Shown: positions 20,164 through 46,298 of the stretch, one piece after another
Position numbering within the stretch: the stretch's first letter is position 1
How the letters are laid out: each line of letters begins with the position of its first letter
Assembly: GCA_949283025.1 (NCBI GenBank)
Contig: CASDRB010000008.1
Span: 85 to 64,084, forward strand
Reading direction: 5' to 3'
Source of the DNA: an uncultured bacterium
Lineage (GTDB): Bacteria; Bacillota_I; Bacilli_A; RFN20; CAG-826
DNA length: 64,000 bases
The notes under the pieces: generated by a model
Databases searched by the model: none
What the model saw: only the letters and a program-made list of their open reading frames with translations
What the model was told of the DNA's origin: nothing
Program-made: the position numbers and the translations under genes

Positions 20164-20679
20164 TTATTTGGTTTTAAATCCTATATTGTTATCAGAACAT
20201 GGCATATTTTCTTTTAAATTATGATATTTGGAATTGTATGTTGCAGGATATGGAAAACCAGTATCTCCAAGATTTCCACATGCCACATATGTTCTAACAT
20301 CTTTAAAATAAGAATTCCCCTTTAAAGAGATAGTGGCATTTTTAAATTCGGTATTTTTTGGATTTAGACATAAATCAGTTGCCTCATGTAAATAGACAGC
20401 GCCACGAGTCAAGGATGTTGTTACCTGAGTAGAAGTGCCATCTGTTAATTTCTTTTTAATAGCTAATAATGTTCCTAATGCTAAGAAAAAGCCAGGAATA
20501 TAATCCAATGGAACTCCATTTAAATTAACAGGATTATCTAAAGTTCCATTTCTAACCGATAAGCCAGTAATGTCTTCAGCACAAGGAGCCCATCCAGGAT
20601 AATTTCTCCAAACCGAATCAGAAAAACACATCAAATGTGAATAAATAATGTTAGGGTTAATTTTTTTTGATATCCTCAA
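20164..20679 (-). pseudogene. CoA-transferase family III-like fragment (probable gene remnant)
   Basis: TTG-initiated 171 aa ORF. GWAPCAEDITGLSV and DYIPGFFLALGTLLAIKKKLTDGTSTQVTTSLTRGAVYL resemble the central region of CaiB/BaiF-type enzymes, which are about 400 aa. There is no room for the missing N-terminal part. Confidence 0.3.
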
Positions 20680-20772: not shown

Positions 20773-22920
20773 CTACATAACGAATGTTTGAGATGTGATT
20801 ACTTCTTCAGGGCTATACGAGATTACTACTAAAACATTTTCTTTTGTTGGCACGTTAGTAAAAGCAAAAGTACTAGTATTAAACTCGATAGTTTCAACAA
20901 GCGTTGTATATTCTCCGGCGACATCTGATTCCTCATACAATGATGCTGTTAAGGTGTTTTCGCGCGGATTATCGAAACTGAACTCATTTCCTCCAGGTTG
21001 GATTTGCTTTATCTCTGGAGCTTTTGAAGTAGTAAAAGGAATTCTATCTGCTTCGAATTCTAAATCGATTCCAGACTTGAAAACGAATATATAATTTGTC
21101 GATGGCATCAAATAATGGATTACATCTTGCCCACTATTATTAAATCCACCTGAATAATATTCATCAATTTCGTTTCCTTCTTCATAGATGAAAACATAGG
21201 AAATTTGATCTTCTGGCGTGCAATTATATGAGAACAACACTCCGTCCCAATATATTTCATCAATAGATGCCGAAGCAGATGGAATCTCTGCCGTTATAAA
21301 ATCAATATCGTATAGCAGGATTGGACCTTCTACAATATCATTATACATTATCTTGATAGTATATTTTGTCTCGTCTTGCAAGCCATCCACTTTCAAATTA
21401 AGATAACCATAATTATCGAGTTCAAAATTGAAAGTTTGGGTCACTCCGTTAATGATTGCTTCGGCATATAGATTTTCTACTTCGTAAGTTTCCAAACTAT
21501 CAACAGTATATTCAAACGAGCGATAAGTCACAAACTGATATTCTTCATAAAGTCTGGTTCTAAATTCGTAAGTGGCCACATGGATTGGTTCAGATAAATT
21601 TTGACTTTCAAAAAGAACCTCAACATAATAGTCATTAACAGGCATTAATGGTTCAAATTCGCCAAATTCAATTTTTTCATAAAAGACGAATGTTTTTTCG
21701 ACTTGTTCATTTGTCTTTTTGTCATATAAATATGCACTTAAAACCAAATCGCTATCGGACGGCCAATTCAATACATCGAATTCAACTTTTCGACCAGTAT
21801 TGTTTGATTCAACAAACTCAAGATTGTCAGGAATTGGATCGCTTTCAAACCTTATCTCTTCAATGACGCTAGTGCCATAATTAATAAGTTTAAGAATGTA
21901 AGACCTTCCAGGAATTAAATCGTTATAGTAATATCCAAATCCATCTTGGTGAACATAGTCAATAAAATTATTATCGCTATCAAACAAACAAAGTAAAAAG
22001 GAAGCTTCGCAATTATAATCATAATAAATAAACACACCAATATGAGTTGATCCTTTTTCTGCGATTTCAATTTTGTATTCAGGGACGATAATGGACGTTG
22101 CAAATGTTTTATTTCCAACCTCAAATCCTTCTTGAAATAAAGTCAATGTATACATTTCAGTCGGCACTAAATTATCAAAATACAATGTTCCGCCAGCAAA
22201 ATATTTAGAAGCAATTAAGTTTCCGTTAGCGTTATGAATGTTTGCTTCTATGTATGAATTTTCAGCTCCATTAACATTGAAAGTCATTGCATATAAACTA
22301 CTTTTTTCAAAATCAATATCGATATTATATTTAGGAATTTCAAGAGTTGAATATGTACCCAATTTAAATATTTTACCATCGTCTATTGATTTGGCGGTGA
22401 TTGCATAAGATGTGGCGGGTTCAAGTTCTTCAAATAGGATGTATGGTATACTTTCATCGTTTAAAAAGGCGGTTGTTTTATATGATTCGGTGGTATCATC
22501 AACATTTTCGGCATAAAAAAGTAAATTGTCATATGAAGTATTTTTGATATTCAATTCGCATTTTATATATGATAAACCGGTGTTGATTTGTTCAAACGAA
22601 ACGCCAATGAGCGTCGCAGTTACAGCTGTAGCAGTTAAAGCGACTACACCAATAGCGGTAACCACCACTCCCGCTGTGCTGACTGTACCAAAAGATAATC
22701 CCGATTTAACAATTAATTTATCTCTAATTTTATTTTTATTATTTCTTTTTTTGGAAGAGAAATCATTTTGATTAAATTCTTTTGATGAAATTAAAGATGG
22801 AAATTCAACTGACTTATTTGATTTGATTTCTTCGACTTGGATAAATTCATGATTAAAAGATTCTTTTTCAAAAGATTTGACAAATTCATCATGTCTATTC
22901 GTTTCTTTTGGCAATTTCAT
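20773..22920 (-). CDS. Membrane-anchored protein with repeated beta-rich extracellular modules, unknown function
   Basis: About 85 aa cytoplasmic N-terminus, one TM (VSTAGVVVTAIGVVALTATAVTATLIGV), then about 600 aa of reiterated ~85-90 aa units with an L-x-P-x-x-x-Y pattern. The first ATG is at 22920. Confidence 0.7.
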   Translation of the reverse strand: MKLPKETNRHDEFVKSFEKESFNHEFIQVEEIKSNKSVEFPSLISSKEFNQNDFSSKKRNNKNKIRDKLIVKSGLSFGTVSTAGVVVTAIGVVALTATAVTATLIGVSFEQINTGLSYIKCELNIKNTSYDNLLFYAENVDDTTESYKTTAFLNDESIPYILFEELEPATSYAITAKSIDDGKIFKLGTYSTLEIPKYNIDIDFEKSSLYAMTFNVNGAENSYIEANIHNANGNLIASKYFAGGTLYFDNLVPTEMYTLTLFQEGFEVGNKTFATSIIVPEYKIEIAEKGSTHIGVFIYYDYNCEASFLLCLFDSDNNFIDYVHQDGFGYYYNDLIPGRSYILKLINYGTSVIEEIRFESDPIPDNLEFVESNNTGRKVEFDVLNWPSDSDLVLSAYLYDKKTNEQVEKTFVFYEKIEFGEFEPLMPVNDYYVEVLFESQNLSEPIHVATYEFRTRLYEEYQFVTYRSFEYTVDSLETYEVENLYAEAIINGVTQTFNFELDNYGYLNLKVDGLQDETKYTIKIMYNDIVEGPILLYDIDFITAEIPSASASIDEIYWDGVLFSYNCTPEDQISYVFIYEEGNEIDEYYSGGFNNSGQDVIHYLMPSTNYIFVFKSGIDLEFEADRIPFTTSKAPEIKQIQPGGNEFSFDNPRENTLTASLYEESDVAGEYTTLVETIEFNTSTFAFTNVPTKENVLVVISYSPEEVITSQTFVM

Positions 22921-23030
22921 AAACAATTATCTTGTTTATATTATTTCATTATTAATAAAAAGTGTCAATGTAAGCAAAATATAAGTATCATTTTTTATGG
23001 CTTTGAAACAAAATAAACTGTTATTAAAAA

Positions 23031-24494
23031 TTATAAGTTTGTAATTTCGCCAATGAAAATAGGAATATCATTGAAATCTTTTATTACATAAATAAATGGT
23101 GAATCTAATGTGATAGCATAACCATCGTTTGGTAATGGCGCGACACTTCCAGCAGGTAGCGAAAATGTTAAAGTTTTAATTTTGGTGCCGTCTTCATTAA
23201 AAATAATTCGATTTTGCTGTTTACAAATTGATAGATAAATAGGAACATTAACAACATTAAGTGCTTCATTAAAAATATAATTATCTTGATTGAATAATTC
23301 TTTTCCAAATTCGTTTTTTATCAATAATTCATCACAGTCGACCATTTGGCTAATATTAAATTTAGGTATAGATAATTCAATAGGAGTATTGCTGATTAAT
23401 TTATTTTCGTCTTCGTTTAAAAAATTGATATCTTTAATTAAGTCAAATATTGAGTCGTCTTTATTTTTAGGGGTTAAATATTGAACCTTGTAGCCATTAA
23501 AATAATAATCATAAAATGAAACATAATCCCCATAATCATAAATATCGCCTAAATAAATATGCGACATGAAATTGGCTTGAGTTATCGTATTATTTAAATT
23601 GGTAAAATCTTGCAGTTTCGTCTCATTTTTATCATAAGGATTCATCCATTTATTAACAAAATACATTGTTGAAAATAAATAAAAAATCGCTGCATCATTA
23701 TCATCAATTAAATTGAATATGTCTTGTAATTCTAGTGATGAAAATGGAGAATGTTGAACAATCCATTCCTTCATAAAATCGACATGATCTGAATTGGTAA
23801 AATCAACTTTAAATGCCTCAGTATAACGATTGGTCAATCCATTGATGTAATAATTGTCGATATCTAAATCGTTATTCATAAAAAAACCATTGTATAAATA
23901 TGTGCCAATATCTTTTTTATTATAAAAATTGTTTTTAAATGTGTTAATAAAATTGGCCTGTCTTGAACTGACGTCGCTTCCTAACAAATTATCAAAAATA
24001 TACTGATACTCTTCCCCTGCTAAAGTCGATAATATATCTAGATGCATATATAAACTAATTGGTGAATATCCAAAATTTTGTTCATCTAAACCATTTAAAA
24101 ATATTTCATAAGCAAAATTATTTACATCGCTTATGTAATCATCGTTTACTTCAAAACTTCCTTTTTGGTCAGGATAGTTAATCGTGTTTAATTTAATGAT
24201 GCCGCTAGTGGTAATTTCTTCCATTTCCTGTTCATTAAATAACTTTTTTTCATAAGAAAATCGTTCGCTAACTTTTAAAGAGGCAATTAAAAATCCAACG
24301 ATAGGAATTAATATGATGCCAATGCAAGAACATCCAAATACAACACCAGCAATTTTAAATCTATGCGCTATTTTTTCATGCTTGGTGCTTTTTTTATAAT
24401 CTTTTTCTAAATGATTAAATTCAAAATCATTAAAAGTTTCTTCAAAAGGTTTAATTGGGTGATTTTTTTCGTAATCTTTAAAAATCTTTTTCAT
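23031..24494 (-). CDS. Anti-sigma-position membrane protein with extracellular serpin domain
   Basis: About 45 aa cytoplasmic N-terminus, one TM (FKIAGVVFGCSCIGIILIPIVGFLIASL), then about 400 aa with serpin hallmarks. These are FAYEIFLNGL..NFGYSPISLYMHLDILSTLAGEE near the start, the hinge NEDGTKIKTLT, and a C-terminal DSPFIYVIKDFNDIPIFIGEITNL. There is a 4 nt ATGA overlap with the sigma gene. Confidence 0.75.
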   Translation of the reverse strand: MKKIFKDYEKNHPIKPFEETFNDFEFNHLEKDYKKSTKHEKIAHRFKIAGVVFGCSCIGIILIPIVGFLIASLKVSERFSYEKKLFNEQEMEEITTSGIIKLNTINYPDQKGSFEVNDDYISDVNNFAYEIFLNGLDEQNFGYSPISLYMHLDILSTLAGEEYQYIFDNLLGSDVSSRQANFINTFKNNFYNKKDIGTYLYNGFFMNNDLDIDNYYINGLTNRYTEAFKVDFTNSDHVDFMKEWIVQHSPFSSLELQDIFNLIDDNDAAIFYLFSTMYFVNKWMNPYDKNETKLQDFTNLNNTITQANFMSHIYLGDIYDYGDYVSFYDYYFNGYKVQYLTPKNKDDSIFDLIKDINFLNEDENKLISNTPIELSIPKFNISQMVDCDELLIKNEFGKELFNQDNYIFNEALNVVNVPIYLSICKQQNRIIFNEDGTKIKTLTFSLPAGSVAPLPNDGYAITLDSPFIYVIKDFNDIPIFIGEITNL

Positions 24495-25003
24495 AAGAAT
24501 AACTCCTTATTTTGTCTTAAAATTTTTCGAGCATTAGAAAAAATAACTCGACATCGTGTTTCATTTTTATTAATTAAAGGAGATATTTCCTTATAAGATA
24601 ATCCAAAGTAAGCATGATATATAAACACATCATATTCTTGTTTGCTTAATACTTTTTTAATCTCGCCAATTAGACTAGTTTCTTCGTCATGACTCATAAG
24701 CATATTATCGTTTATTTCTAAATTTGCTTCTTTTTGTTTTTTCTTTAATAAATCTAGGCAAAGATTTTTACATGTTATACTCAGAAAAGCTACAAACTTT
24801 TGGCTATTTTTTAATTTATTAAAATCATATGATAAAACTTTGTAATAAGTCTCACTTACCATATCTTCAGCGTCCTCTTTATTTGAAAGCATGGAAAAAG
24901 CAATATGAAATAATAAACGATATGTCTCGTTATAAACTTTTTTAACTATGTTTTCGTCTTTTAAGAAGAAATAACGAATGTCTGTTTTAGAAAACTTGTC
25001 CAT
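24491..25003 (-). CDS. Sigma-70 family (ECF-like) RNA polymerase sigma factor
   Basis: 170 aa. Region 2-like EDAEDMVSETYYKVL and region 4 HTH GLSYKEISPLINKNETRCRVIFSNARKIL. Confidence 0.8.
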   Translation of the reverse strand: MDKFSKTDIRYFFLKDENIVKKVYNETYRLLFHIAFSMLSNKEDAEDMVSETYYKVLSYDFNKLKNSQKFVAFLSITCKNLCLDLLKKKQKEANLEINDNMLMSHDEETSLIGEIKKVLSKQEYDVFIYHAYFGLSYKEISPLINKNETRCRVIFSNARKILRQNKELFL

Positions 25004-25179
25004 TTATCTCCTTTCAAAATATATGACGATTAAATTATGATAAATGTTCATAAATATTTTTATTCCAATTCATTTTATTATTTACTAATTAATTTAATTT
25101 AAACAATATCAAAAAACGAATCTTAATTTTGATTTATATCAAAAATATTAATAAAAACTTAAATAAAACTAATTGAGTA

Positions 25180-25365
25180 TTATTTTTCTTTGCGGCGAAT
25201 TAAAAATCCACATAATCCTGCAAGACCAAACAAACCGCCAATCAAGAAAAACAAAGCTGAATCAGGTTTATATTCTGTTCCTGAAGTAAAAACAATTGTG
25301 CCACTAAGAATCAATACACAAGAAATTAATATAAGCGAAGCAAAAAATAAATCATACTTTCTCAT
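25180..25365 (-). CDS. Small two-TM membrane protein (hypothetical)
   Basis: 61 aa with two clear hydrophobic helices and a basic C-terminus. The overlapping plus-strand ORF is low-complexity. Confidence 0.4.
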   Translation of the reverse strand: MRKYDLFFASLILISCVLILSGTIVFTSGTEYKPDSALFFLIGGLFGLAGLCGFLIRRKEK

Positions 25366-25886: not shown

Positions 25887-25960
25887 TGGAGCACCTGACG
25901 GGAATCGAACCCGCATAGCCAGCTTGGGAAGCTGGAGTTCTACCACTGAACTACAGATGC
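25887..25960 (-). tRNA. tRNA-Gly (anticodon CCC)
   Basis: Manual fold: acceptor GCATCTG/CAGGTGC, anticodon stem CCAGC/GCTGG, loop TTCCCAA, U73 discriminator, encoded CCA. A perfect TATAAT (25976..25971, minus strand) lies just upstream. Confidence 0.85.
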
Positions 25961-26003
25961 ACGTATAAATATTATAAGGCAAGTTTTAAAAAAAGAAACA
26001 AAA

Positions 26004-26019
26004 ACCGGATAAATCCGGT
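26004..26019 (-). terminator. Rho-independent terminator between tRNA-Val and tRNA-Gly
   Basis: CCGGAT-AA-ATCCGG hairpin, followed on the minus strand by TTTTGTTTCTTTTTTT. Confidence 0.6.
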
Positions 26020-26031
26020 TTATATTTTAAC

Positions 26032-26107
26032 TGGTGGATGCTGAGGGGATCGAACCCCCGACCTCCTGTACGTCAAACAGGTGCTCTCCCAGCTGAGCTA
26101 AACATCC
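26032..26107 (-). tRNA. tRNA-Val (anticodon GAC)
   Basis: Manual fold: acceptor GGATGTT/AGCATCC, anticodon stem CCTGT/ACAGG, loop TTGACGT, GGTTCGATCC T-arm, CCA. Confidence 0.85.
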
Positions 26108-26111
26108 ATAC

Positions 26112-26188
26112 TGGTGCCGGCTATCGGAATTGAACCAACAACCTACTGATTACGATTCAGTTGCTCTGCCAGATTGAGCTAAGCCGGC
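26112..26188 (-). tRNA. tRNA-Thr (anticodon CGT)
   Basis: Manual fold: acceptor GCCGGCT/AGCCGGC, anticodon stem ACTGA/TCAGT, loop ATCGTAA, CCA. Confidence 0.85.
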
Positions 26189-26256: not shown

Positions 26257-26994
26257 TTATTCAGATTTTCCCCCTGCTGCAATAAATTGTTTTAACCTAA
26301 TATTTTGACATTGATTAAAAATATAATCGGGACTACCTGATTCTAATATTATCCCTTGGTCCATAAAAATTACTTTATCTGCAACATTTTTTGCAAAATT
26401 CATTTCGTGTGTAACCACCACCATCGTCACTCCTTCACTTGCTAAATCCTTCATGACTTTTAAAACTTCTTGGACCATTTCTGGATCTAAAGCCGATGTT
26501 GGTTCATCAAATAAAATTACCTCTGGATTCATCGATAAACTTCTTGCAATAGCGACACGCTGTTTTTGGCCACCTGATATATCTTTTATTTTATAATTAA
26601 TACGGTCGCTCAAACCGACTTTATTAAGATTGTTTATCGCTATTTCAGTTGCTTCTTTTTTATTTCTTTTTAATACTTTTGTTTGACCAATGACACAATT
26701 TTGTAAAACATCTAGATTATTAAATAAATTAAACGATTGAAAAACCATAGATAATTTGCTTCTAATTTGATTTACATTATTGTTTTTTTCTAAAATATTC
26801 ACACCATTGAATAATATTTTTCCACTGGTAGGGGTTTCCAATAAATTTATGCATCTTAATAATGTTGATTTTCCGCTTCCGGAAGAACCAATAATAGCAA
26901 CACATTCACCTTTTTCTACTTCAAAGCTAATATCTTTTAAAATCAGATTATCTCCAAAAGATTTTGCTAAATTTTCAATTGATAAAACTGACAT
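26257..26994 (-). CDS. Polar amino-acid ABC transporter ATP-binding protein
   Basis: Walker [10 protein letters not shown], signature SGGQKQR and Walker [12 protein letters not shown]. Confidence 0.9.
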
Positions 26995-26996
26995 AA

Positions 26997-27764
26997 TTAT
27001 GCCTCCTTTTTTCGATAATGGAAAAACGAGAATTTGAATTTTTTGCCATCCATTTTTCTTTCTACTAATTTTAAAATTCCAGTAGCACCCAATGTTAAAA
27101 TTAAATAAATAAGTGCAACAATAATATAAGTGGCAACATACTTATAATTTTTTGAGGCTGCATCAGCAGCTTGAAAATATAATTCAGTGACGCCGATCAC
27201 ATTTAAAACTGATGAATCTTTAATATTGACAATCCATTCATTTCCAATGGTCGGTAAACAATTTCTTAAAGCTTGAGGCAAAGAGACATAAAATAGCGTT
27301 TGCAATTTGCTCATACCAAGCGATGAAGCGCCTTCAATTTGACCATTGTCAACACCATTAAGACCACTTTTTATAATTTCGCCCATATATGCAGCAGTAT
27401 TAAAAGTAATGACCACTAAACCAGCAATCATCCAGCCATCTAAAATAGGAACACCAGGCAAAATAGCGTTCCAATTAACACCTAGCATCTGACAGCCATA
27501 TTTAAATATCATAGCTTGAACCATCATCGGCGTGCCCCTAATAACGATGGAGTAAATATTGCAAAGCCATACGATAGGATATACCCATAATTTATGATAC
27601 CAAGGATCGCTTTTTTTAATAGTTAAGCCCTTTCCAAAGGCTAAAAATATTCCTAAAAATAATCCGACACCTGTACCTATAATCGATAATAATAATGTTG
27701 ATACCAAACCTAATAAATAAAAATCATAGTAATTTGATAACAAATAACCTATATCTGAAAACAT
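26997..27764 (-). CDS. Amino-acid ABC transporter permease
   Basis: Polytopic, with an EAA-like loop ([24 protein letters not shown]). Confidence 0.85.
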
Positions 27765-27785
27765 ATTTTATCCTTTATTAATTTA

Positions 27786-28637
27786 TTAATAAGAAGCACT
27801 TCTTATCACAGCTTCGCTCATTAAATTTATGCGCGTTGTTTCATCGATTTGCGATAAACCTTCGTTTAATCGATCAATCAATTCATCATTTTGTTTATTA
27901 ACGCCAATTGAGACACCTAATTCCGATTGTTTTTCGCCAAGTATTTCTTGATCGATATGAATAATACCTAAATCGGTGTTAGCTGCTACAATAGCCTGCG
28001 CAACTGGCAATTCGGCTGTCATAGCAAAAGCAAGACCATTAGAAACATCTGTGGCAGCATTAGCAAAAGTGTCAACTGGATTAGCATGTATAGCGCCATA
28101 TTCGCTTGCAAAAATATCAATAACATCGTTAGTGACGGTCGATGTTTGCGAAACAATAATTTTTCCATTTACTAAATTTGCAAATTGCTCAGATGTCAAC
28201 GCATCAACATAATCGTCAGCAATATCTTTTTTACTCACTAAGACTAATTCGCTGCGATAATATTCATTTGTAAAAGAAATTGATTCTCTTCGTTCAGGTG
28301 TATCGGTCATTCCGGCAATAACGGCATTAATCGTGCCCATTTGCAAATCGGTGACTAATGATTCCCAAGCAGTTTTTACTATCACCACTTCAACATTTAA
28401 GCTTTCGCCTAATAGTTTGGCAATTTGAATATCGTATCCATCGGCATATTGATTGGATTTATTAGAAATTGGAAGAGTGAAATCATTTGATGTATTTTCA
28501 GTCCAATTAAATGGAGCATAATTGCATTCCATACCAATAATTAACTTAGAATTATCAAATTGTGTCGGTCCGCAACTTTGCAATCCAAAACCGGCAATGC
28601 TGAGTAAGGATATCAATCCCAAAAATGTTTTTTTCAT
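27786..28637 (-). CDS. Amino-acid ABC transporter substrate-binding lipoprotein (family 3)
   Basis: Signal plus lipobox LQSC. Has the periplasmic-binding-protein family 3 pattern (GYDIQIAK.., AGMT.TPER). Confidence 0.8.
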   Translation of the reverse strand: MKKTFLGLISLLSIAGFGLQSCGPTQFDNSKLIIGMECNYAPFNWTENTSNDFTLPISNKSNQYADGYDIQIAKLLGESLNVEVVIVKTAWESLVTDLQMGTINAVIAGMTDTPERRESISFTNEYYRSELVLVSKKDIADDYVDALTSEQFANLVNGKIIVSQTSTVTNDVIDIFASEYGAIHANPVDTFANAATDVSNGLAFAMTAELPVAQAIVAANTDLGIIHIDQEILGEKQSELGVSIGVNKQNDELIDRLNEGLSQIDETTRINLMSEAVIRSASY

Positions 28638-28649
28638 AAAAAAATGTTC

Positions 28650-28872
28650 CTTTCTTTAGACCGCATTACTATCAATGCGATCCCAAGTTGGAACTGACAT
28701 CAATAGCGCCTACCGATGAGACACATCGGCGAGTCTATAAGATATTTTCTTATAGCCCAACTCGGTTTTTTTAGGCCATTATTAACCGGTTTCGGCACTC
28801 TTACTTTTCCTTTAGATGCGATTGGCCATGTCATCTAGAGTACTTGTTTGTAGTGCTCCTCTATTCGATCTA
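28650..28872 (-). promoter_or_regulatory. Lysine riboswitch (L-box)-like leader of the ABC transporter operon
   Basis: The minus strand contains AAUAGAGGAGCAC, AAGUACUC, AAAGGAAAAGUAAGAGUGCCGAAAC, GUUGGG and hairpins CUAUAAGA/UCUUAUAG and CCGAUG/CAUCGG. GGCGCUAUU pairs with AAUAG. GUUCC can pair with the GGAAC of the RBS. Confidence 0.55.
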
Positions 28873-41278: not shown

Positions 41279-44200
41279 TTACTTTAATTTCCAAGATAAA
41301 AAATCTTGTGTAAATTTGTCCTTATTTTCATAAAGAATTTTGTTAACTTCTTTTTTAGAAACGCTCAACGCTTTAGCTATCTTTTTAGCACTCATCCCTT
41401 TAGCATTAGATTTTAGCAAAGAAACTATTTTTTCTTCTAGACTATTATCATCGCTAGCAGTTTCACGTTGTGGCGTTTCTTCAACATCTAAATCAGCATC
41501 AGCATCTGTGTCTAACTCATTGCTATAAGATGTGATTTCGTCTTGAACGGCTTTAGCGTTTATTTCGTTCACATAGTCTTTGACTTCTTGCTCGATTTTA
41601 TTAAAACCAAACCAACCAAAACTATTGCGATATTGATTGTTAATATCAGGATTATTAGTATCTAAATTTTCGCCGATAGATTCATTCACAAAGAACTCGT
41701 GGATATAGTTGTTTAAAGTTTTTTCCTCAAAAATATGATATTTATTCAAAGCTTCAAAATCTTCTTTTTTAATACCAACTGCCTCTAAAAAGACATCAGG
41801 ATCAGCATTTTTAAAGATTTCTCTAAATGTTGTTTCACGATAGACGCTAATAAATAAAAATTCTATAAGTCTTGATAAAATATGCCTCAAAGCGTTGTTA
41901 CAATCAGCAACCGACGTGTCATTAGGTCCAGCAGGAATCTTAGGTGCTAAGGTTGTTTTAACTCCAAGTTTAAATGAATCACAATACCATCTCTTATATA
42001 GCATTCCTCTATATTCTTGTGGAATATGGTTAATGTCATTTAAATATTGATTAACAAAATTATAGATTTTTGGTCTTGTTTCTTTTGTAAATACAATATT
42101 GTTGCCAAACTGCGCTTTTACTTCATTATTAGCGAATTTGATGCCATCTTCTTTTCCACATTGAAGTCTTCTAATTGGAACATTAACGCCCTGTTCATAT
42201 CCTTTTTTAAAGCCGTTTGTGTACCAAACAACCTCATTATGACTATAAGTCTTAGGACAGTTCTCAATTACATAGTTTTCTATCTTCTCTTCAAATGTTT
42301 TTTGAACAACTTCATCATCTAAATCAAAATAGAGATTAGAATCAGCTAATCCCAAGTTATAACCCTTGTCTCTACCTTCTTTGGCTACTTTAGTTTCATA
42401 TCCTTTTTCAGGATCGGATTCTACTGGTTTATATCCACCTTGCTTCTTATCTTTAAATTTAGAGTGAGCAAATATCTTTTTGAATATATCATTTATTTCC
42501 GGATCATTGAGCATTGCAGCAAGTGTCTCTTCGTCCGCTACGTGAGTTGTATTCGCTAGATTTGTAATCTTTCTGCTTAAAGGGAGCTTTGATTGATCGC
42601 CTAATGTCGCTAATTCATAGAACACCTCATAAGCAATCGGGCTAGACATATCACCATTCATGAAAATTGGTAGATATTTAACGATTAATTTTGCTGTTTG
42701 AAGTTTTGTATAAGCTTCGTTCTTGCCACTTTCCTCAGCATATCTTAAAAGTAAAGCTGCTGCCCTATCGATATTGAAATCATAAACATATCCCTCTTTT
42801 TTTAAAATAACACCATTTTTAACAAGAGGGGTTTGAATTCGAAACACGGATTGAAAATATTGTTCCGGCGAAGATAAATCTTTTAAAACAAAGACACTAA
42901 ACCAATCTTTAACAGTAACGCCAATAGTTAATTTGTTTACTGTAAGGGCGATACTTCCTAGTTTATTAGTGTTATTGGCCCTAGTAATGCCTTCCATTAA
43001 ATGGTCGAATGCATCAACACCACTTCCTACACTTCTATCAGAAAGATTGATGATTTCATATTTAGAAAAATAGTCGTCGCTTTGAAGAAGCTTAGTCATG
43101 GCTATACAAGAATTAACTGATGGCATGAGCCATAATGTGTGCTTGTTATTGTTGAGCATTTTGTGGTTTGAATATGGGAAATCCATGCCGAATGTGGATC
43201 TACCTTTTATGATTTCAAACCACGTTTTGATTTCGTCCTCATAGACAAACACTAATGGTTCGTCAGGATTGGAATCCTGTCTAGTTTCAAAGAATTTATT
43301 TAAAGAAAAATATGATTTGCCCAGAAATTTATCAGTTGAACTAGTTTGATCACTTAAACTTCCAAACAAAGTAGACATGTTGTAGCCGAATATCTTCATG
43401 TCTGGGAATTGAGCGTAAAGAGGATCTATACGCTCAAAACTAGGTGGTTCTTTATCTGAGTCAGGATATTTATTTTTTTGCTCATCAAAGTAAGAATATG
43501 TAAACGTTGTATCTTTAGTAAACTCGCCCCTAGCTAATACTTTAAAAGGGGTCCCAGATAAGCAAATTATCTTATCGGTTTTGATGCCAAATCTATCGAT
43601 AACATCCTTTGTTTTGCTTAATTCTTTACTGTAAGCTGAGTCCAAGTCTTCTAACTTTTCTTGAGTTCTTTCATTCCAAGCGCCGAAATGATATTCATCT
43701 AAGATAACTAAATCAAAATGTTCTCCTTTTAGCTTTGCGATTTTCTCTTTTACATCGCCATCTTTTTCTTTTCCTAAGAAATTCTGCAACGACAAAAACA
43801 GAACGTATGGCTCATTGAGATTTTCCAAATGGAAAAATACATTTCTTAAATTTTTATCAGTGTAATATTTGTAATCTTTTTGAATATGTAAAAGATCATC
43901 TTTCCATGAAGCCTCAACTGCAGGTATGAATGTAAGAATTAAAATCCTATTTATGTTTGCTTCTTCGCAGTATTTGTAAGTGGTATAGGATTTACCAAAA
44001 CGCATTTTGCAATTAAGCAAAAAACGTCCGCCTTTAGGCTTTTTATCAAAATAAGTTTTAAGAGCATCGATACAGGCTTGTTGTTCTTTTCTAGGTGTAT
44101 AGATTTCCTTTTTCGAGCCTTTATTTCTAACTTTTTCAAATATCTCAATTAATTCATCTTGAGGAACATTAGTGAACCACTCTTGCTCCTTTTCGGTAAT

Positions 44201-44581
44201 ACCAGCATTGATTTTTAATATCTCATCATGAACATGATAGTCTTTAAACTTCTCATTCCTTGCATCTAAGCAAACGCCCCAATATATGACTTCTCTTTCA
44301 TTTCCATATTTAGCAAATTGATCATCAGTTAGAGCTAATTCATGGACTTGTTCACCTATTCTTTTCTTTAGAGCATGATTAAATGTCTCGCCGCCATGAC
44401 AGGTAGCCATACCAACCTTAATTCCGTGAAAAGGAAATTTAGGTAAGATATACATATACAAAACGATTAAATTTTCGTCAGTATCATTTGTTTTGTTTAA
44501 CTCAAAAGTTTGAGTCTTGTCGTCATAAGTAACAACGTCAGATTGATTGATATCAGGAGAAAATATAACTCTGCAAGACAT
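41279..44581 (-). CDS. Multidomain protein: N-terminal T5orf172 nuclease-like domain, SF2 (ResIII/SNF2-like) helicase, C-terminal winged helix
   Basis: N-terminus GIKVGMATC..KKRIGEQ..HVHDEILK..EQEWF. Helicase motifs RFGKSYT (I), VILDEYHFG (II), LSGTPF (III) and QSVFRIQT (VI-like). Acidic linker, then KIVSLLKSNAKGMSAKKIAKALSVSKKEVNKILYENKDKF..SWKL. Confidence 0.8.
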   Translation of the reverse strand: MSCRVIFSPDINQSDVVTYDDKTQTFELNKTNDTDENLIVLYMYILPKFPFHGIKVGMATCHGGETFNHALKKRIGEQVHELALTDDQFAKYGNEREVIYWGVCLDARNEKFKDYHVHDEILKINAGITEKEQEWFTNVPQDELIEIFEKVRNKGSKKEIYTPRKEQQACIDALKTYFDKKPKGGRFLLNCKMRFGKSYTTYKYCEEANINRILILTFIPAVEASWKDDLLHIQKDYKYYTDKNLRNVFFHLENLNEPYVLFLSLQNFLGKEKDGDVKEKIAKLKGEHFDLVILDEYHFGAWNERTQEKLEDLDSAYSKELSKTKDVIDRFGIKTDKIICLSGTPFKVLARGEFTKDTTFTYSYFDEQKNKYPDSDKEPPSFERIDPLYAQFPDMKIFGYNMSTLFGSLSDQTSSTDKFLGKSYFSLNKFFETRQDSNPDEPLVFVYEDEIKTWFEIIKGRSTFGMDFPYSNHKMLNNNKHTLWLMPSVNSCIAMTKLLQSDDYFSKYEIINLSDRSVGSGVDAFDHLMEGITRANNTNKLGSIALTVNKLTIGVTVKDWFSVFVLKDLSSPEQYFQSVFRIQTPLVKNGVILKKEGYVYDFNIDRAAALLLRYAEESGKNEAYTKLQTAKLIVKYLPIFMNGDMSSPIAYEVFYELATLGDQSKLPLSRKITNLANTTHVADEETLAAMLNDPEINDIFKKIFAHSKFKDKKQGGYKPVESDPEKGYETKVAKEGRDKGYNLGLADSNLYFDLDDEVVQKTFEEKIENYVIENCPKTYSHNEVVWYTNGFKKGYEQGVNVPIRRLQCGKEDGIKFANNEVKAQFGNNIVFTKETRPKIYNFVNQYLNDINHIPQEYRGMLYKRWYCDSFKLGVKTTLAPKIPAGPNDTSVADCNNALRHILSRLIEFLFISVYRETTFREIFKNADPDVFLEAVGIKKEDFEALNKYHIFEEKTLNNYIHEFFVNESIGENLDTNNPDINNQYRNSFGWFGFNKIEQEVKDYVNEINAKAVQDEITSYSNELDTDADADLDVEETPQRETASDDNSLEEKIVSLLKSNAKGMSAKKIAKALSVSKKEVNKILYENKDKFTQDFLSWKLK

Positions 44582-44582
44582 A

Positions 44583-46298
44583 CTAAATCATCTCCTGAAT
44601 ATTCATTTGAATGAATTTGATTTCTTCACTATTTAAACCATATCGAACAAATAATTGTTCATCAATACTGCTAACACTCTTTGACCAATCAATATCTTTC
44701 TTAGACTTAAAATCTAAAAGAGGGACAAATCTATATACTTTTTGAGTGGTGTGTTGTGTTTGTTTTTGAATACCTACTAAAGCTCTAAAAAATTTGGTCT
44801 TTATATATTTTATTACATTTTCTGCGCTTTGTGCATCATTAAAAGGGCCTATCTCGAGGAATGTCTCAGTGCATAGTTGTCCTGGCGTGCTTAGCACTGG
44901 CGTGCTAGGGACCTCTCCAATATTTCCGCAGCCATAAGCCTCAGCAATAAATACTTTATATTTATCAAGGCATGGACTTTTCTTTGGAATTGGATAGTTC
45001 TTAGGCAAATATTTCCAAGTCCTTTTCATTTTATCACCTAAGCCAAAAATTTCATAGCCGCCATCAATTTTTTCAGTTAAAAATTCTGGGAGCCCGAACT
45101 TCGATGCAGACACCATAGTCTCAGCACGAAAACCATATGGTTTGGAAGCTGAGACTATGGTGTCGAACGTATTTTCATTTCGCGCTAAAACTTTGTCTAA
45201 AATTGAAACCAAAATCTCGTCGCGAATAAAAATATCTACGCCATCTTTTTTTAAATACCTTGTACTCTTTCTAACACCGTTTTGGGTATACGATGTAATC
45301 TTACATGGTCCGGTGTGATCTTTATCCCACAAAAAGAAACAAACGCCGCCTTTTATATCATTATTAGGGAAACATTCTTTTGGATTTAAAAAATCATGTA
45401 GACTTGAAAAATGTTTATCTTCAATCATTTTTTGCCTAAAATCATCTAACCCCTTCCCACCTATCATCCACCTAGATGGAACAATCATGCATAAATATTT
45501 TGGATTTAAAGAAATAGCATTTTCAACAAACAATTGATAGATAGGCCTTGCGCTAGCTTGTGCCCCTCCATCACTTAATTGGTATGGCGGATTTCCGATA
45601 ATTACATCAAATTTCATAGACCTGTCTCCTTTAAAAAATAAATCTTGCAAATGCCTCTCTAAAGCCAATTTCCCATAGTGGATAAATTCGTAGGCATAAT
45701 GTTCCCTTTGATCAGATGAATTGTACTTAGAATTACTCTTTACACGACAGTATATACATTTACCACCTTTATCAAATGTATGCTCGATTCGTGGAGTTTT
45801 TATATTTCCTTCTTCATCATCAAACCATGTTCCATTGCCAATCGCATATCCATTTACATAATGTCCATCGGGCGCTTTAATTCCATCGCATTTTCTATTC
45901 GCTTGAGAGCAATAATAAAGGGTTCTTCTAGCTACGTTGGCTGTAAATTTAGTTTGCCCAATAGCAAATATCATATTTTGAAGAATGTGTTTTTTTCTTA
46001 TTTCTTCATTTGGAATAATATCTTTTAATCCTTTATCTAATCTCAAGGCAATTTCTCTTTCAAAAATTCCGTTTTTAGTTGCGGGGTTTAACCACTTATA
46101 GTTTGGGTTATGCCATACTTCCTCAGGTAAGGAATCTAGAATCATGTCGCATGTTTTTCGAGGAGTGAAAACCTCATCATTGCCGACATTGGTAATAGTT
46201 TCCAAAATATCGAAGTGTTCTAAATAGTCATAGGCACTTTCGACAGCGCTGGTATGATCTTTTTCTGCCTTTATAGCTACATTCTTATTTTCTTCCAT
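44583..46298 (-). CDS. Eco57I-type (gamma class) N6-adenine DNA methyltransferase
   Basis: Motif X DEVFTPRKTCDMIL, motif I-like WLNPATKNGIF and catalytic motif IV VIIGNPPYQ. It starts 1 nt after the upstream stop. Confidence 0.85.
   Translation of the reverse strand: MEENKNVAIKAEKDHTSAVESAYDYLEHFDILETITNVGNDEVFTPRKTCDMILDSLPEEVWHNPNYKWLNPATKNGIFEREIALRLDKGLKDIIPNEEIRKKHILQNMIFAIGQTKFTANVARRTLYYCSQANRKCDGIKAPDGHYVNGYAIGNGTWFDDEEGNIKTPRIEHTFDKGGKCIYCRVKSNSKYNSSDQREHYAYEFIHYGKLALERHLQDLFFKGDRSMKFDVIIGNPPYQLSDGGAQASARPIYQLFVENAISLNPKYLCMIVPSRWMIGGKGLDDFRQKMIEDKHFSSLHDFLNPKECFPNNDIKGGVCFFLWDKDHTGPCKITSYTQNGVRKSTRYLKKDGVDIFIRDEILVSILDKVLARNENTFDTIVSASKPYGFRAETMVSASKFGLPEFLTEKIDGGYEIFGLGDKMKRTWKYLPKNYPIPKKSPCLDKYKVFIAEAYGCGNIGEVPSTPVLSTPGQLCTETFLEIGPFNDAQSAENVIKYIKTKFFRALVGIQKQTQHTTQKVYRFVPLLDFKSKKDIDWSKSVSSIDEQLFVRYGLNSEEIKFIQMNIQEMI

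Follow-up and report, generated by a model that had tools for sequence, protein, structure and literature searches.

Can a serpin, a protein familiar as a protease inhibitor or a ligand carrier, serve a bacterium as the sensor of a sigma factor? The question is raised by two overlapping genes in a stretch of 64,000 nucleotides (hereafter the window) from an uncultured bacterium (GTDB lineage Bacteria; Bacillota_I; Bacilli_A; RFN20; CAG-826), positions 85 to 64,084 of contig CASDRB010000008.1 in assembly GCA_949283025.1. One gene codes for a sigma factor of the extracytoplasmic function (ECF) type, the other for a single-pass membrane protein that exposes a serpin domain. Pairs of ECF sigma and anti-sigma factors are a major route by which bacteria sense the outside world, and for most groups the sensed signal is not known. 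In this pair the presumed sensor is a serpin domain, a design undescribed in the literature that we searched. We consider it moderately probable that the two genes make up a self-regulating sigma/anti-sigma module, in which the membrane-tethered serpin protein would bind the sigma factor and its ectodomain would sense proteases. The parts of the pair are as follows.

24491-25003, minus strand: ECF (group 4) sigma factor, 170 aa, with sigma2 and sigma4 regions only (Pfam, TIGR02937)
23031-24494, minus strand: transmembrane serpin gene, 487 aa (open reading frame and Pfam)
24354-24494, minus strand: cytoplasmic N-terminal segment, residues 1-47, the presumed sigma-binding module (conservation, co-occurrence with the sigma gene)
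24276-24353, minus strand: single transmembrane helix, residues 48-73 (I48-L73), N-in/C-out (hydropathy, charge)
24126-24275, minus strand: conserved juxtamembrane segment, residues 74-123, with the motif F-x-x-L-N-x-I-x-Y-P, N-terminal to serpin helix A (invariant residues)
23037-24125, minus strand: extracytoplasmic serpin domain, residues 124-486 (PF00079, AlphaFold2, Foldseek)
23121-23195, minus strand: reactive-centre loop, residues 434-458, with the hinge E-D-G-T-K-I-K-T-L-T and the distal part F-S-L-P-A-G-S-V-A-P-L-P-N-D-G (alignment to the tengpin hinge)

An earlier, sequence-only reading of this DNA had proposed a small ECF-like sigma gene overlapping the serpin gene by ATGA, and the three minus-strand open reading frames that it described, counting the next gene downstream, are found where it had placed them. 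The sigma protein matches Sigma70_r2 (7e-10) and Sigma70_r4_2 (2e-5) in Pfam as well as the ECF superfamily model TIGR02937, with 64 bits for a cutoff of 43; having these two regions only and a size within the usual 170-200 residues or so, it belongs to ECF group 4. Among protein structures (PDB), a sequence search with the sigma factor recovered region 2 of SigR alone (1.6e-3). The overlap of the sigma stop with the serpin-gene start can be read directly in the sequence (...ttattcttATGAaaaag), and a ribosome-binding site, AAGGAG, lies 8 nt 5' of the serpin-gene start. Such an overlap is consistent with translational coupling. With its place directly downstream of the sigma gene, this coupling and a single-pass, N-in product, the serpin gene has the layout of an anti-sigma gene.

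That the ectodomain is a genuine and complete serpin is borne out by several approaches. PF00079 matches residues 124-486 with E=1.8e-31 and 110 bits (cutoff 27), covering positions 3-369 of the 370 in the profile. A profile of the family, run against PDB, retrieves 178 distinct serpin sequences at E<=1e-10, led by tengpin (2pee, 3e-35). In the AlphaFold2 model the core has a local confidence (pLDDT) mostly between 80 and 90 (range 68-92), with residues 1-96 below 50, and Foldseek returns serpins only for this model, with E from 1e-21 to 1e-22 and target-normalised TM-scores of 0.75-0.82. The full-length profile match and the fold thus both place the protein in the serpin superfamily, and their agreement makes a chance motif match untenable; the check by profile and structure prediction that had been suggested for the fold comes out in its favour. 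The topology, too, is that expected of an anti-sigma factor: some 47 cytoplasmic residues, charged for the most part, precede a single helix whose Kyte-Doolittle maximum over 19 residues is 2.63, and the seven Lys/Arg found within the 17 residues ahead of this helix indicate an N-in, C-out orientation. Beyond the helix, E90 and L102 of the juxtamembrane segment are invariant and N103, Y107 and P108 nearly so. Public databases, where they name members of this family at all, call them merely 'serpin family protein'.

Is the association of the two genes more than an accident of one genome? Their persistence as neighbours had been set in advance as a test, and it holds in at least 44 species-representative genomes, with flanking genes that differ at every locus. 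The family members are all known from metagenome-assembled genomes. A protein search across 5.8 billion sequences gave only 19 relatives, 11 of which form one family of 444-498 aa, all metagenomic. In five of these (P0002, P0006, P0010, P0008 and P0012), each from a different neighbourhood, the serpin gene is directly preceded by a Sigma70_r2 gene that overlaps or abuts it; a sixth (P0011) has no sigma gene, and there a lipoprotein-like signal (…LCITSC) replaces the cytoplasmic extension. We then took one genome per GTDB species and scanned from the serpin side, obtaining 79 loci that were sorted with home-made hidden Markov models for serpin and sigma and counted only where the upstream sequence sufficed. 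For serpins of this clade, a sigma gene lies directly upstream on the same strand in 32 of 38 species and is lacking in the other six; for the more distant serpins it is present in five and absent in 30. The reciprocal search, anchored on the sigma factor in species-representative genomes, found 26 close relatives (41-100% identity), and the next gene codes for a transmembrane serpin in all 25 that have downstream DNA, which added about a dozen species. The next nearest sigma factors are ECFs of Bacteroidota, at 23-31% identity, and their partners are unrelated. We conclude that this sigma clade is dedicated to the serpin. The search for other sigma-adjacent, membrane-anchored serpins that the sequence-only reading had called for thus succeeds from both sides.

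The gene arrangement is itself conserved. A 4-nt overlap is present in 17 of 43 non-redundant pairs, gaps being mostly between -8 and +14 nt, and throughout the sigma-linked proteins the transmembrane helix, with basic residues ahead of it, falls at residues 35-66. Among 1.84 billion representatives at 50% identity, about 95 clusters reach the family-level score (>=262 bits). In some two thirds of them the alignment begins within the first eight positions of the profile and so includes the N-terminal module, and about seven are short, signal-anchored forms. By PRPP synthetase, the nearest genomes are those of the uncultured gut Bacilli UMGS1395 (77%), CAG:449 (76%) and MGYG-HGUT-04199 (75%), all three of which also carry the pair (loci L018, L043 and L015, respectively). 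The sigma-serpin pair is widespread in uncultivated gut Bacillota.

Serpins with and without a sigma gene differ at their N-termini. All sigma-linked serpins have 35-65 residues ahead of the transmembrane helix, whereas in each of the 36 sigma-less ones a plausible start codon is followed, after some 10 residues at most, by a signal peptide, lipobox or short signal anchor. As methionine occurs inside the module, the extension was judged by the start position in the profile and by inspection of the sequence. The cytoplasmic extension is therefore found in all sigma-linked members and in no sigma-less one. Its first 27 residues or so share the motif K-K-x-F-K-x-D-F-E...F-D...L. Column entropies, computed across 48 family members, average 1.91 bits for residues 1-27, 2.04 for the serpin core, 2.81 for the linker and 2.67 for the transmembrane helix: the N-terminal peptide is as well conserved as the serpin core, while linker and helix drift. 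A conserved cytoplasmic peptide whose presence follows that of the sigma gene is what an anti-sigma binding element would be expected to look like, and from this context we infer that it binds the sigma factor. As for the sigma-less members of the clade (L009, L020, L034, L037, L039, L045 and L048), they have a lipobox or a short signal anchor (MKKRYWLIPLI…) and keep the unusual hinge discussed below. Being tethered and having the same hinge, they suggest that the N-terminal module was gained or lost on a serpin already attached to the membrane. The motif F-x-x-L-N-x-I-x-Y-P is also present in the sigma-less lipoprotein relatives, and it must belong to the serpin lineage, not to the anti-sigma module.

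A second type of fusion, in Clostridia, supports the anti-sigma reading by analogy. The five distant serpins that directly follow a sigma gene (L055, L057, L070, L072 and L079) carry another motif at the N-terminus (…LLDAIGxVDDxLIxxA), and their hinge is near-canonical (EEG[CV]xAxx[FY]T). Their sigma factors belong to a clade (N-terminus MDDxQIIELY…) with at least 582 relatives. At 80 sampled loci of this clade (L127-L206), the gene downstream, usually with a 4-nt overlap, codes for a single-pass protein with the shared motif K.E.LF.AIG.IDD..I.EA, and with an ectodomain of very variable length (200-1000 aa). Three of these (L148, L161 and L178) are again serpins, so that serpin fusions on the Clostridial module are known from eight species altogether. 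Here the serpin is one of many sensor domains set on a common anti-sigma module, and the clade seems to come with a modular anti-sigma family, the sensor domains of which could be listed in a catalogue.

What controls the operon? Upstream of the sigma gene lies a candidate promoter.

25025-25049, minus strand: ECF-type operon promoter, with -35 GAAC at 25049-25046, a 17-nt spacer and -10 CGTC at 25028-25025 (sequence read, pattern search)

An AAC-type -35 with a CGT-type -10 is the classic pattern of ECF promoters, as seen with sigma-W, -X, -M and -V of B. subtilis. GAAC-N17-CGTC has this pattern and ends about 22 nt upstream of the sigma ATG. Its equivalent in the main clade, AAnCGACrAAA-N11-aaTTGTCTTATT, is found upstream of the sigma gene in 23 loci, the -35 AAC/GAC and the -10 CGTC/TGTC being conserved in front of the pair. 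With a weight matrix of two blocks, most loci reach a score above 20, for 19.5 at most in shuffled upstream regions. Run over 1.7 Mb (both strands, all loci), it gives 23 matches at >=22, every one immediately upstream of a sigma gene; to be sure, the matrix was trained on the same sites that it recovers, which lessens the value of this count for our reading, and the informative part is the lack of further copies in the flanks of about 10 kb. Neither matrix nor pattern scans detected another copy in the window or in these flanks, and the operon is the sole target of the sigma factor visible in the available sequence. With a conserved ECF-type promoter ahead of the pair, the sigma-serpin operon is probably autoregulated.

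In the reactive-centre loop, the hinge and loop string proposed from the letters alone, NEDGTKIKTLTFSLPAGSVAP, is located at residues 433-453. With Glu434 numbered as P17, the protein has the inhibitory consensus at P17 (Glu), P15 (Gly) and P14 (Thr/Ser): E434 is found in 96% of the family, G436 in 98% and T437 in 79%. The hinges compare as follows.

This clade: E-D-G-T-[KTI]-[IV]-[KR]-[ST]-[LVI]-[TS]
Outgroup bacterial serpins in the same scan: EEGTEAAAAT or ENGTKAAAVT
Tengpin: ELGTKAGAVT

No stretch of the protein is better conserved than the hinge (1.25 bits), and the distal loop is among the most variable (2.63 bits), differing in length by up to six residues and rich in Gly, Ala, Ser and Pro. 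This combination fits a protease bait whose specificity would diverge between species. It is further observed that the sigma-less members have the same hinge, which makes it a property of the serpin lineage, not of the fusion. Within a species the picture is quieter: among 15 natural variants (>=90% identical, from different assemblies, all of 487 aa), one of the 22 variable sites is in the distal loop (P447S), and no hot spot of variation is seen in the loop.

Several observations nevertheless weigh against a protease-sensing anti-sigma factor. The small residues (Ala, Gly or Ser) that allow fast loop insertion at P12-P9 are missing clade-wide, with I/V at P12, K/R at P11, S/T at P10 and L/V/I at P9, whereas the outgroup serpins have AAAA or AAAV there. 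A hinge this far from the inhibitory consensus makes rapid insertion, and true inhibition, doubtful. In the AlphaFold2 model, to which cleaved or latent serpins are the best matches, residues 436-445 form a strand; the model represents the loop-inserted state and is uninformative about a metastable native one. At the other end of the protein, Pfam searches with eight N-terminal peptides at E<=10 gave noise only and no known anti-sigma domain, and neither HxxxCxxC nor any other Cys/His motif that might bind zinc is present in the N-terminus. The cytoplasmic part, of about 47 aa, is about half as long as a class I domain, and the segment shows no homology to class I anti-sigma domains (ASD) or to their zinc-binding ZAS form. 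Finally, no site-1 or site-2 protease was identified in the sequence available, nor is any protease gene conserved beside the pair at the loci compared.

Three other explanations draw on these observations. According to the first, the two genes are indeed a sigma/anti-sigma pair, with a serpin that does not inhibit but senses some signal other than a protease, through ligand binding or through conversion to a latent form by heat, pH or oxidation. Non-inhibitory serpins with other roles are well established (CBG, TBG, HSP47 and PEDF), and both the clade-wide departure of the hinge at P12-P9, where outgroups keep EEGTEAAAAT, and the preference of AlphaFold2 for the loop-inserted form would be accounted for. 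We hold this to be unlikely: the residues that would face the core upon insertion (P14 T, P12 I/V, P10 S/T and P8 T/S) are all uncharged, the loop, with 29-35 residues between P17 and the PF motif, is about as long as in other serpins, its distal part is as variable and as rich in Gly, Ala, Ser and Pro as a bait would be, and the Clostridial fusions have a near-canonical hinge. A second explanation makes the serpin a membrane-anchored protective inhibitor, co-transcribed as a target of a sigma factor that is controlled otherwise, with an N-terminal extension used for anchoring or sorting. An N-terminus without homology to known anti-sigma domains is what it would lead one to expect, and in those members of the clade that lack the sigma gene the serpin evidently works alone as a surface protein. 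Yet the extension is present only together with the sigma gene, which in turn is never seen without the serpin; its first 27 residues are conserved despite being cytoplasmic; the Clostridial N-module is found in many single-pass proteins encoded after related sigmas with a 4-nt overlap, the standard layout of anti-sigma genes; and no other candidate regulator is conserved at the loci. This makes the protective role without signalling distinctly improbable. That the ectodomain inhibits the cell's own site-1 protease, the signal being whatever inactivates or titrates the serpin, would explain a dedicated, tethered serpin with a clade-specific hinge, but with no protease gene conserved beside the pair in flanks that differ everywhere, and a distal loop hypervariable between species, unexpected for a conserved endogenous partner, we give it hardly any credence.

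How might a protease-sensing module work? In the resting state, the conserved peptide of about 27 residues would hold the sigma factor at the membrane. An extracellular protease, probably of host gut or microbial origin, would attack the exposed hypervariable loop, and cleavage or covalent trapping, with or without loop insertion, would make the ectodomain or the juxtamembrane linker removable. Once the complexed or cut ectodomain had been cleared, the remaining stub could be removed by intramembrane proteolysis, as in other single-pass anti-sigma factors, and the freed sigma factor would transcribe its own operon, replacing the consumed surface serpin; it might also drive unlinked genes. A bolder version, which we entertain only tentatively, takes the spring-loaded insertion itself as the transmembrane signal: cleavage of the reactive-centre loop would set off the stressed-to-relaxed transition, the F-x-x-L-N-x-I-x-Y-P segment would be released and become open to site-1 cleavage, and one protease hit would mean one sigma release. 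If true, no earlier bacterial signalling pathway would be known to run on a serpin conformational change, and uncultivated Bacilli of the gut, among them some deposited under the name of uncultured Mollicutes, would have a self-renewing circuit that senses and neutralises gut proteases.

Known systems offer instructive comparisons. The closest is RsiV, the anti-sigma factor of sigma-V in Bacillus subtilis, C. difficile and E. faecalis, which combines the roles of anti-sigma factor, lysozyme receptor and lysozyme inhibitor: it is a single-pass protein whose ectodomain binds and inhibits a hydrolytic enzyme of the host (PMC5014341). As set out in PMC5014341 and PMC6066255, binding is followed by stepwise proteolysis and release of the sigma factor, and the response protects against that very enzyme. 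The RsiV sensor is not a serpin, its ligand is lysozyme and not a protease, and its N-terminal domain is longer; for the module in the window, binding and cleavage are proposals, and the sole output identified is the operon itself. Secreted or lipoprotein serpins of bacteria have the same fold, come from the same gut habitat and have a presumed role against host proteases, as is the case for tengpin, the siropins and the Bifidobacterium serpin. They are soluble or lipid-anchored and rely on separate sensors; in Bifidobacterium breve, transcription of the serpin gene is induced by protease via a neighbouring two-component system (PMC8012564). By contrast, the protein in the window would fuse sensor and effector on an anti-sigma module, and its hinge departs from the Ala-rich consensus, with Ile/Val at P12 and Lys at P11.

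The swapping of sensor domains has its own precedents. RsgI/SigI of Clostridium thermocellum are modular, with anti-sigma factors whose sensor domains are exchanged. These, and the DUF4179-type proteins of Firmicutes, likewise combine a common sigma-binding N-module and one transmembrane helix with alternative extracellular domains; unlike them, the N-terminal peptides of our family match neither RsgI_N nor DUF4179 above noise. Firmicute-specific classes of anti-sigma factors are noted in PMC7826278. For the serpin cycle, one may look to eukaryotes, although the likeness is restricted to the relaxed serpin state. CBG and TBG are non-inhibitory hormone carriers in which loop cleavage and the stressed-to-relaxed transition act as a switch. 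Our AlphaFold2 model resembles loop-cleaved CBG (2vdy; target-normalised TM-score 0.82), but CBG and TBG circulate in plasma, where they release a ligand and have no part in the control of transcription.

The sequence-only reading had known of no described serpin-type anti-sigma factor, and the searches made here agree: in full-text literature on serpins together with anti-sigma, ECF or sigma factors we found nothing relevant. The main text of the ECF reclassification mentions no serpin, whether as a sensor domain or otherwise, and a review of gut serpins from 2021 mentions neither sigma factors nor membrane anchoring. The interest of the case is that a serpin sensor, with its well-understood bait biochemistry and its large, irreversible change, makes for a concrete and testable hypothesis about the signal. 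It might explain how the abundant, uncultivated Bacilli of the gut withstand proteases from pancreas and neutrophils. To the inhibition and ligand carriage known from serpins it would add a role in bacterial transcriptional signalling, and it could supply synthetic biology with a compact, two-gene, protease-responsive switch.

The gene downstream of the serpin gene had been proposed as the regulated output, and this part of the sequence-only reading is not supported, while the ECF sigma factor and the anti-sigma-like serpin protein stand in their domains, fold and conserved pairing.

20773-22926, minus strand: surface protein, 717 aa (open reading frame; start probably ATG 22920, not TTG 22926)
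22968-22940, minus strand: sigma-70-like promoter of the 717-aa gene, TTGACA-17-tgAATAAT, an 11/12 match with an extended -10, within the 104-nt spacer

It had been described as a TM-anchored repeat protein 104 nt downstream. The gap and the anchor are there, with an N-in helix near residues 84-105 and the remainder all-beta in the AlphaFold2 model (pLDDT 69.7); BLAST comparison of the protein with itself shows no sequence-level repeats. The protein is lineage-specific, with only four homologues in 5.8 billion proteins and none at the 88 other serpin loci. The closest relatives of the gene are located between genes for an ABC component and a mechanosensitive channel, with no sigma or serpin gene nearby, and in roughly one pair out of three the gene that follows the serpin gene is on the opposite strand. 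No ECF motif was found in the 104-nt spacer. The lack of homologues at other loci, the promoter of sigma-70 type and the unrelated contexts speak against the 717-aa gene as an output or a part of the module: with its own promoter, its rarity and its non-conserved position, it is a neighbour. Further on, an open reading frame of 171 aa (20164-20679, minus strand) matches only positions 108-205 of the 366-position profile of CoA-transferase family III and is probably the remnant of a gene.

The window has other features as well. A restriction-modification pair at 41279-46298 (minus strand) codes for a ResIII helicase-type subunit of 1100 aa and an Eco57I-type methylase of 571 aa. Three tRNA genes just upstream of the sigma-serpin module, and a lysine riboswitch preceding an amino-acid ABC transporter operon (26257-28637), are located at 25890-26188 and 28696-28871, respectively, on the minus strand. 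A 61-aa open reading frame with two hydrophobic helices (25180-25365, minus strand), which may code for a small membrane protein, separates the tRNA cluster from the sigma promoter.

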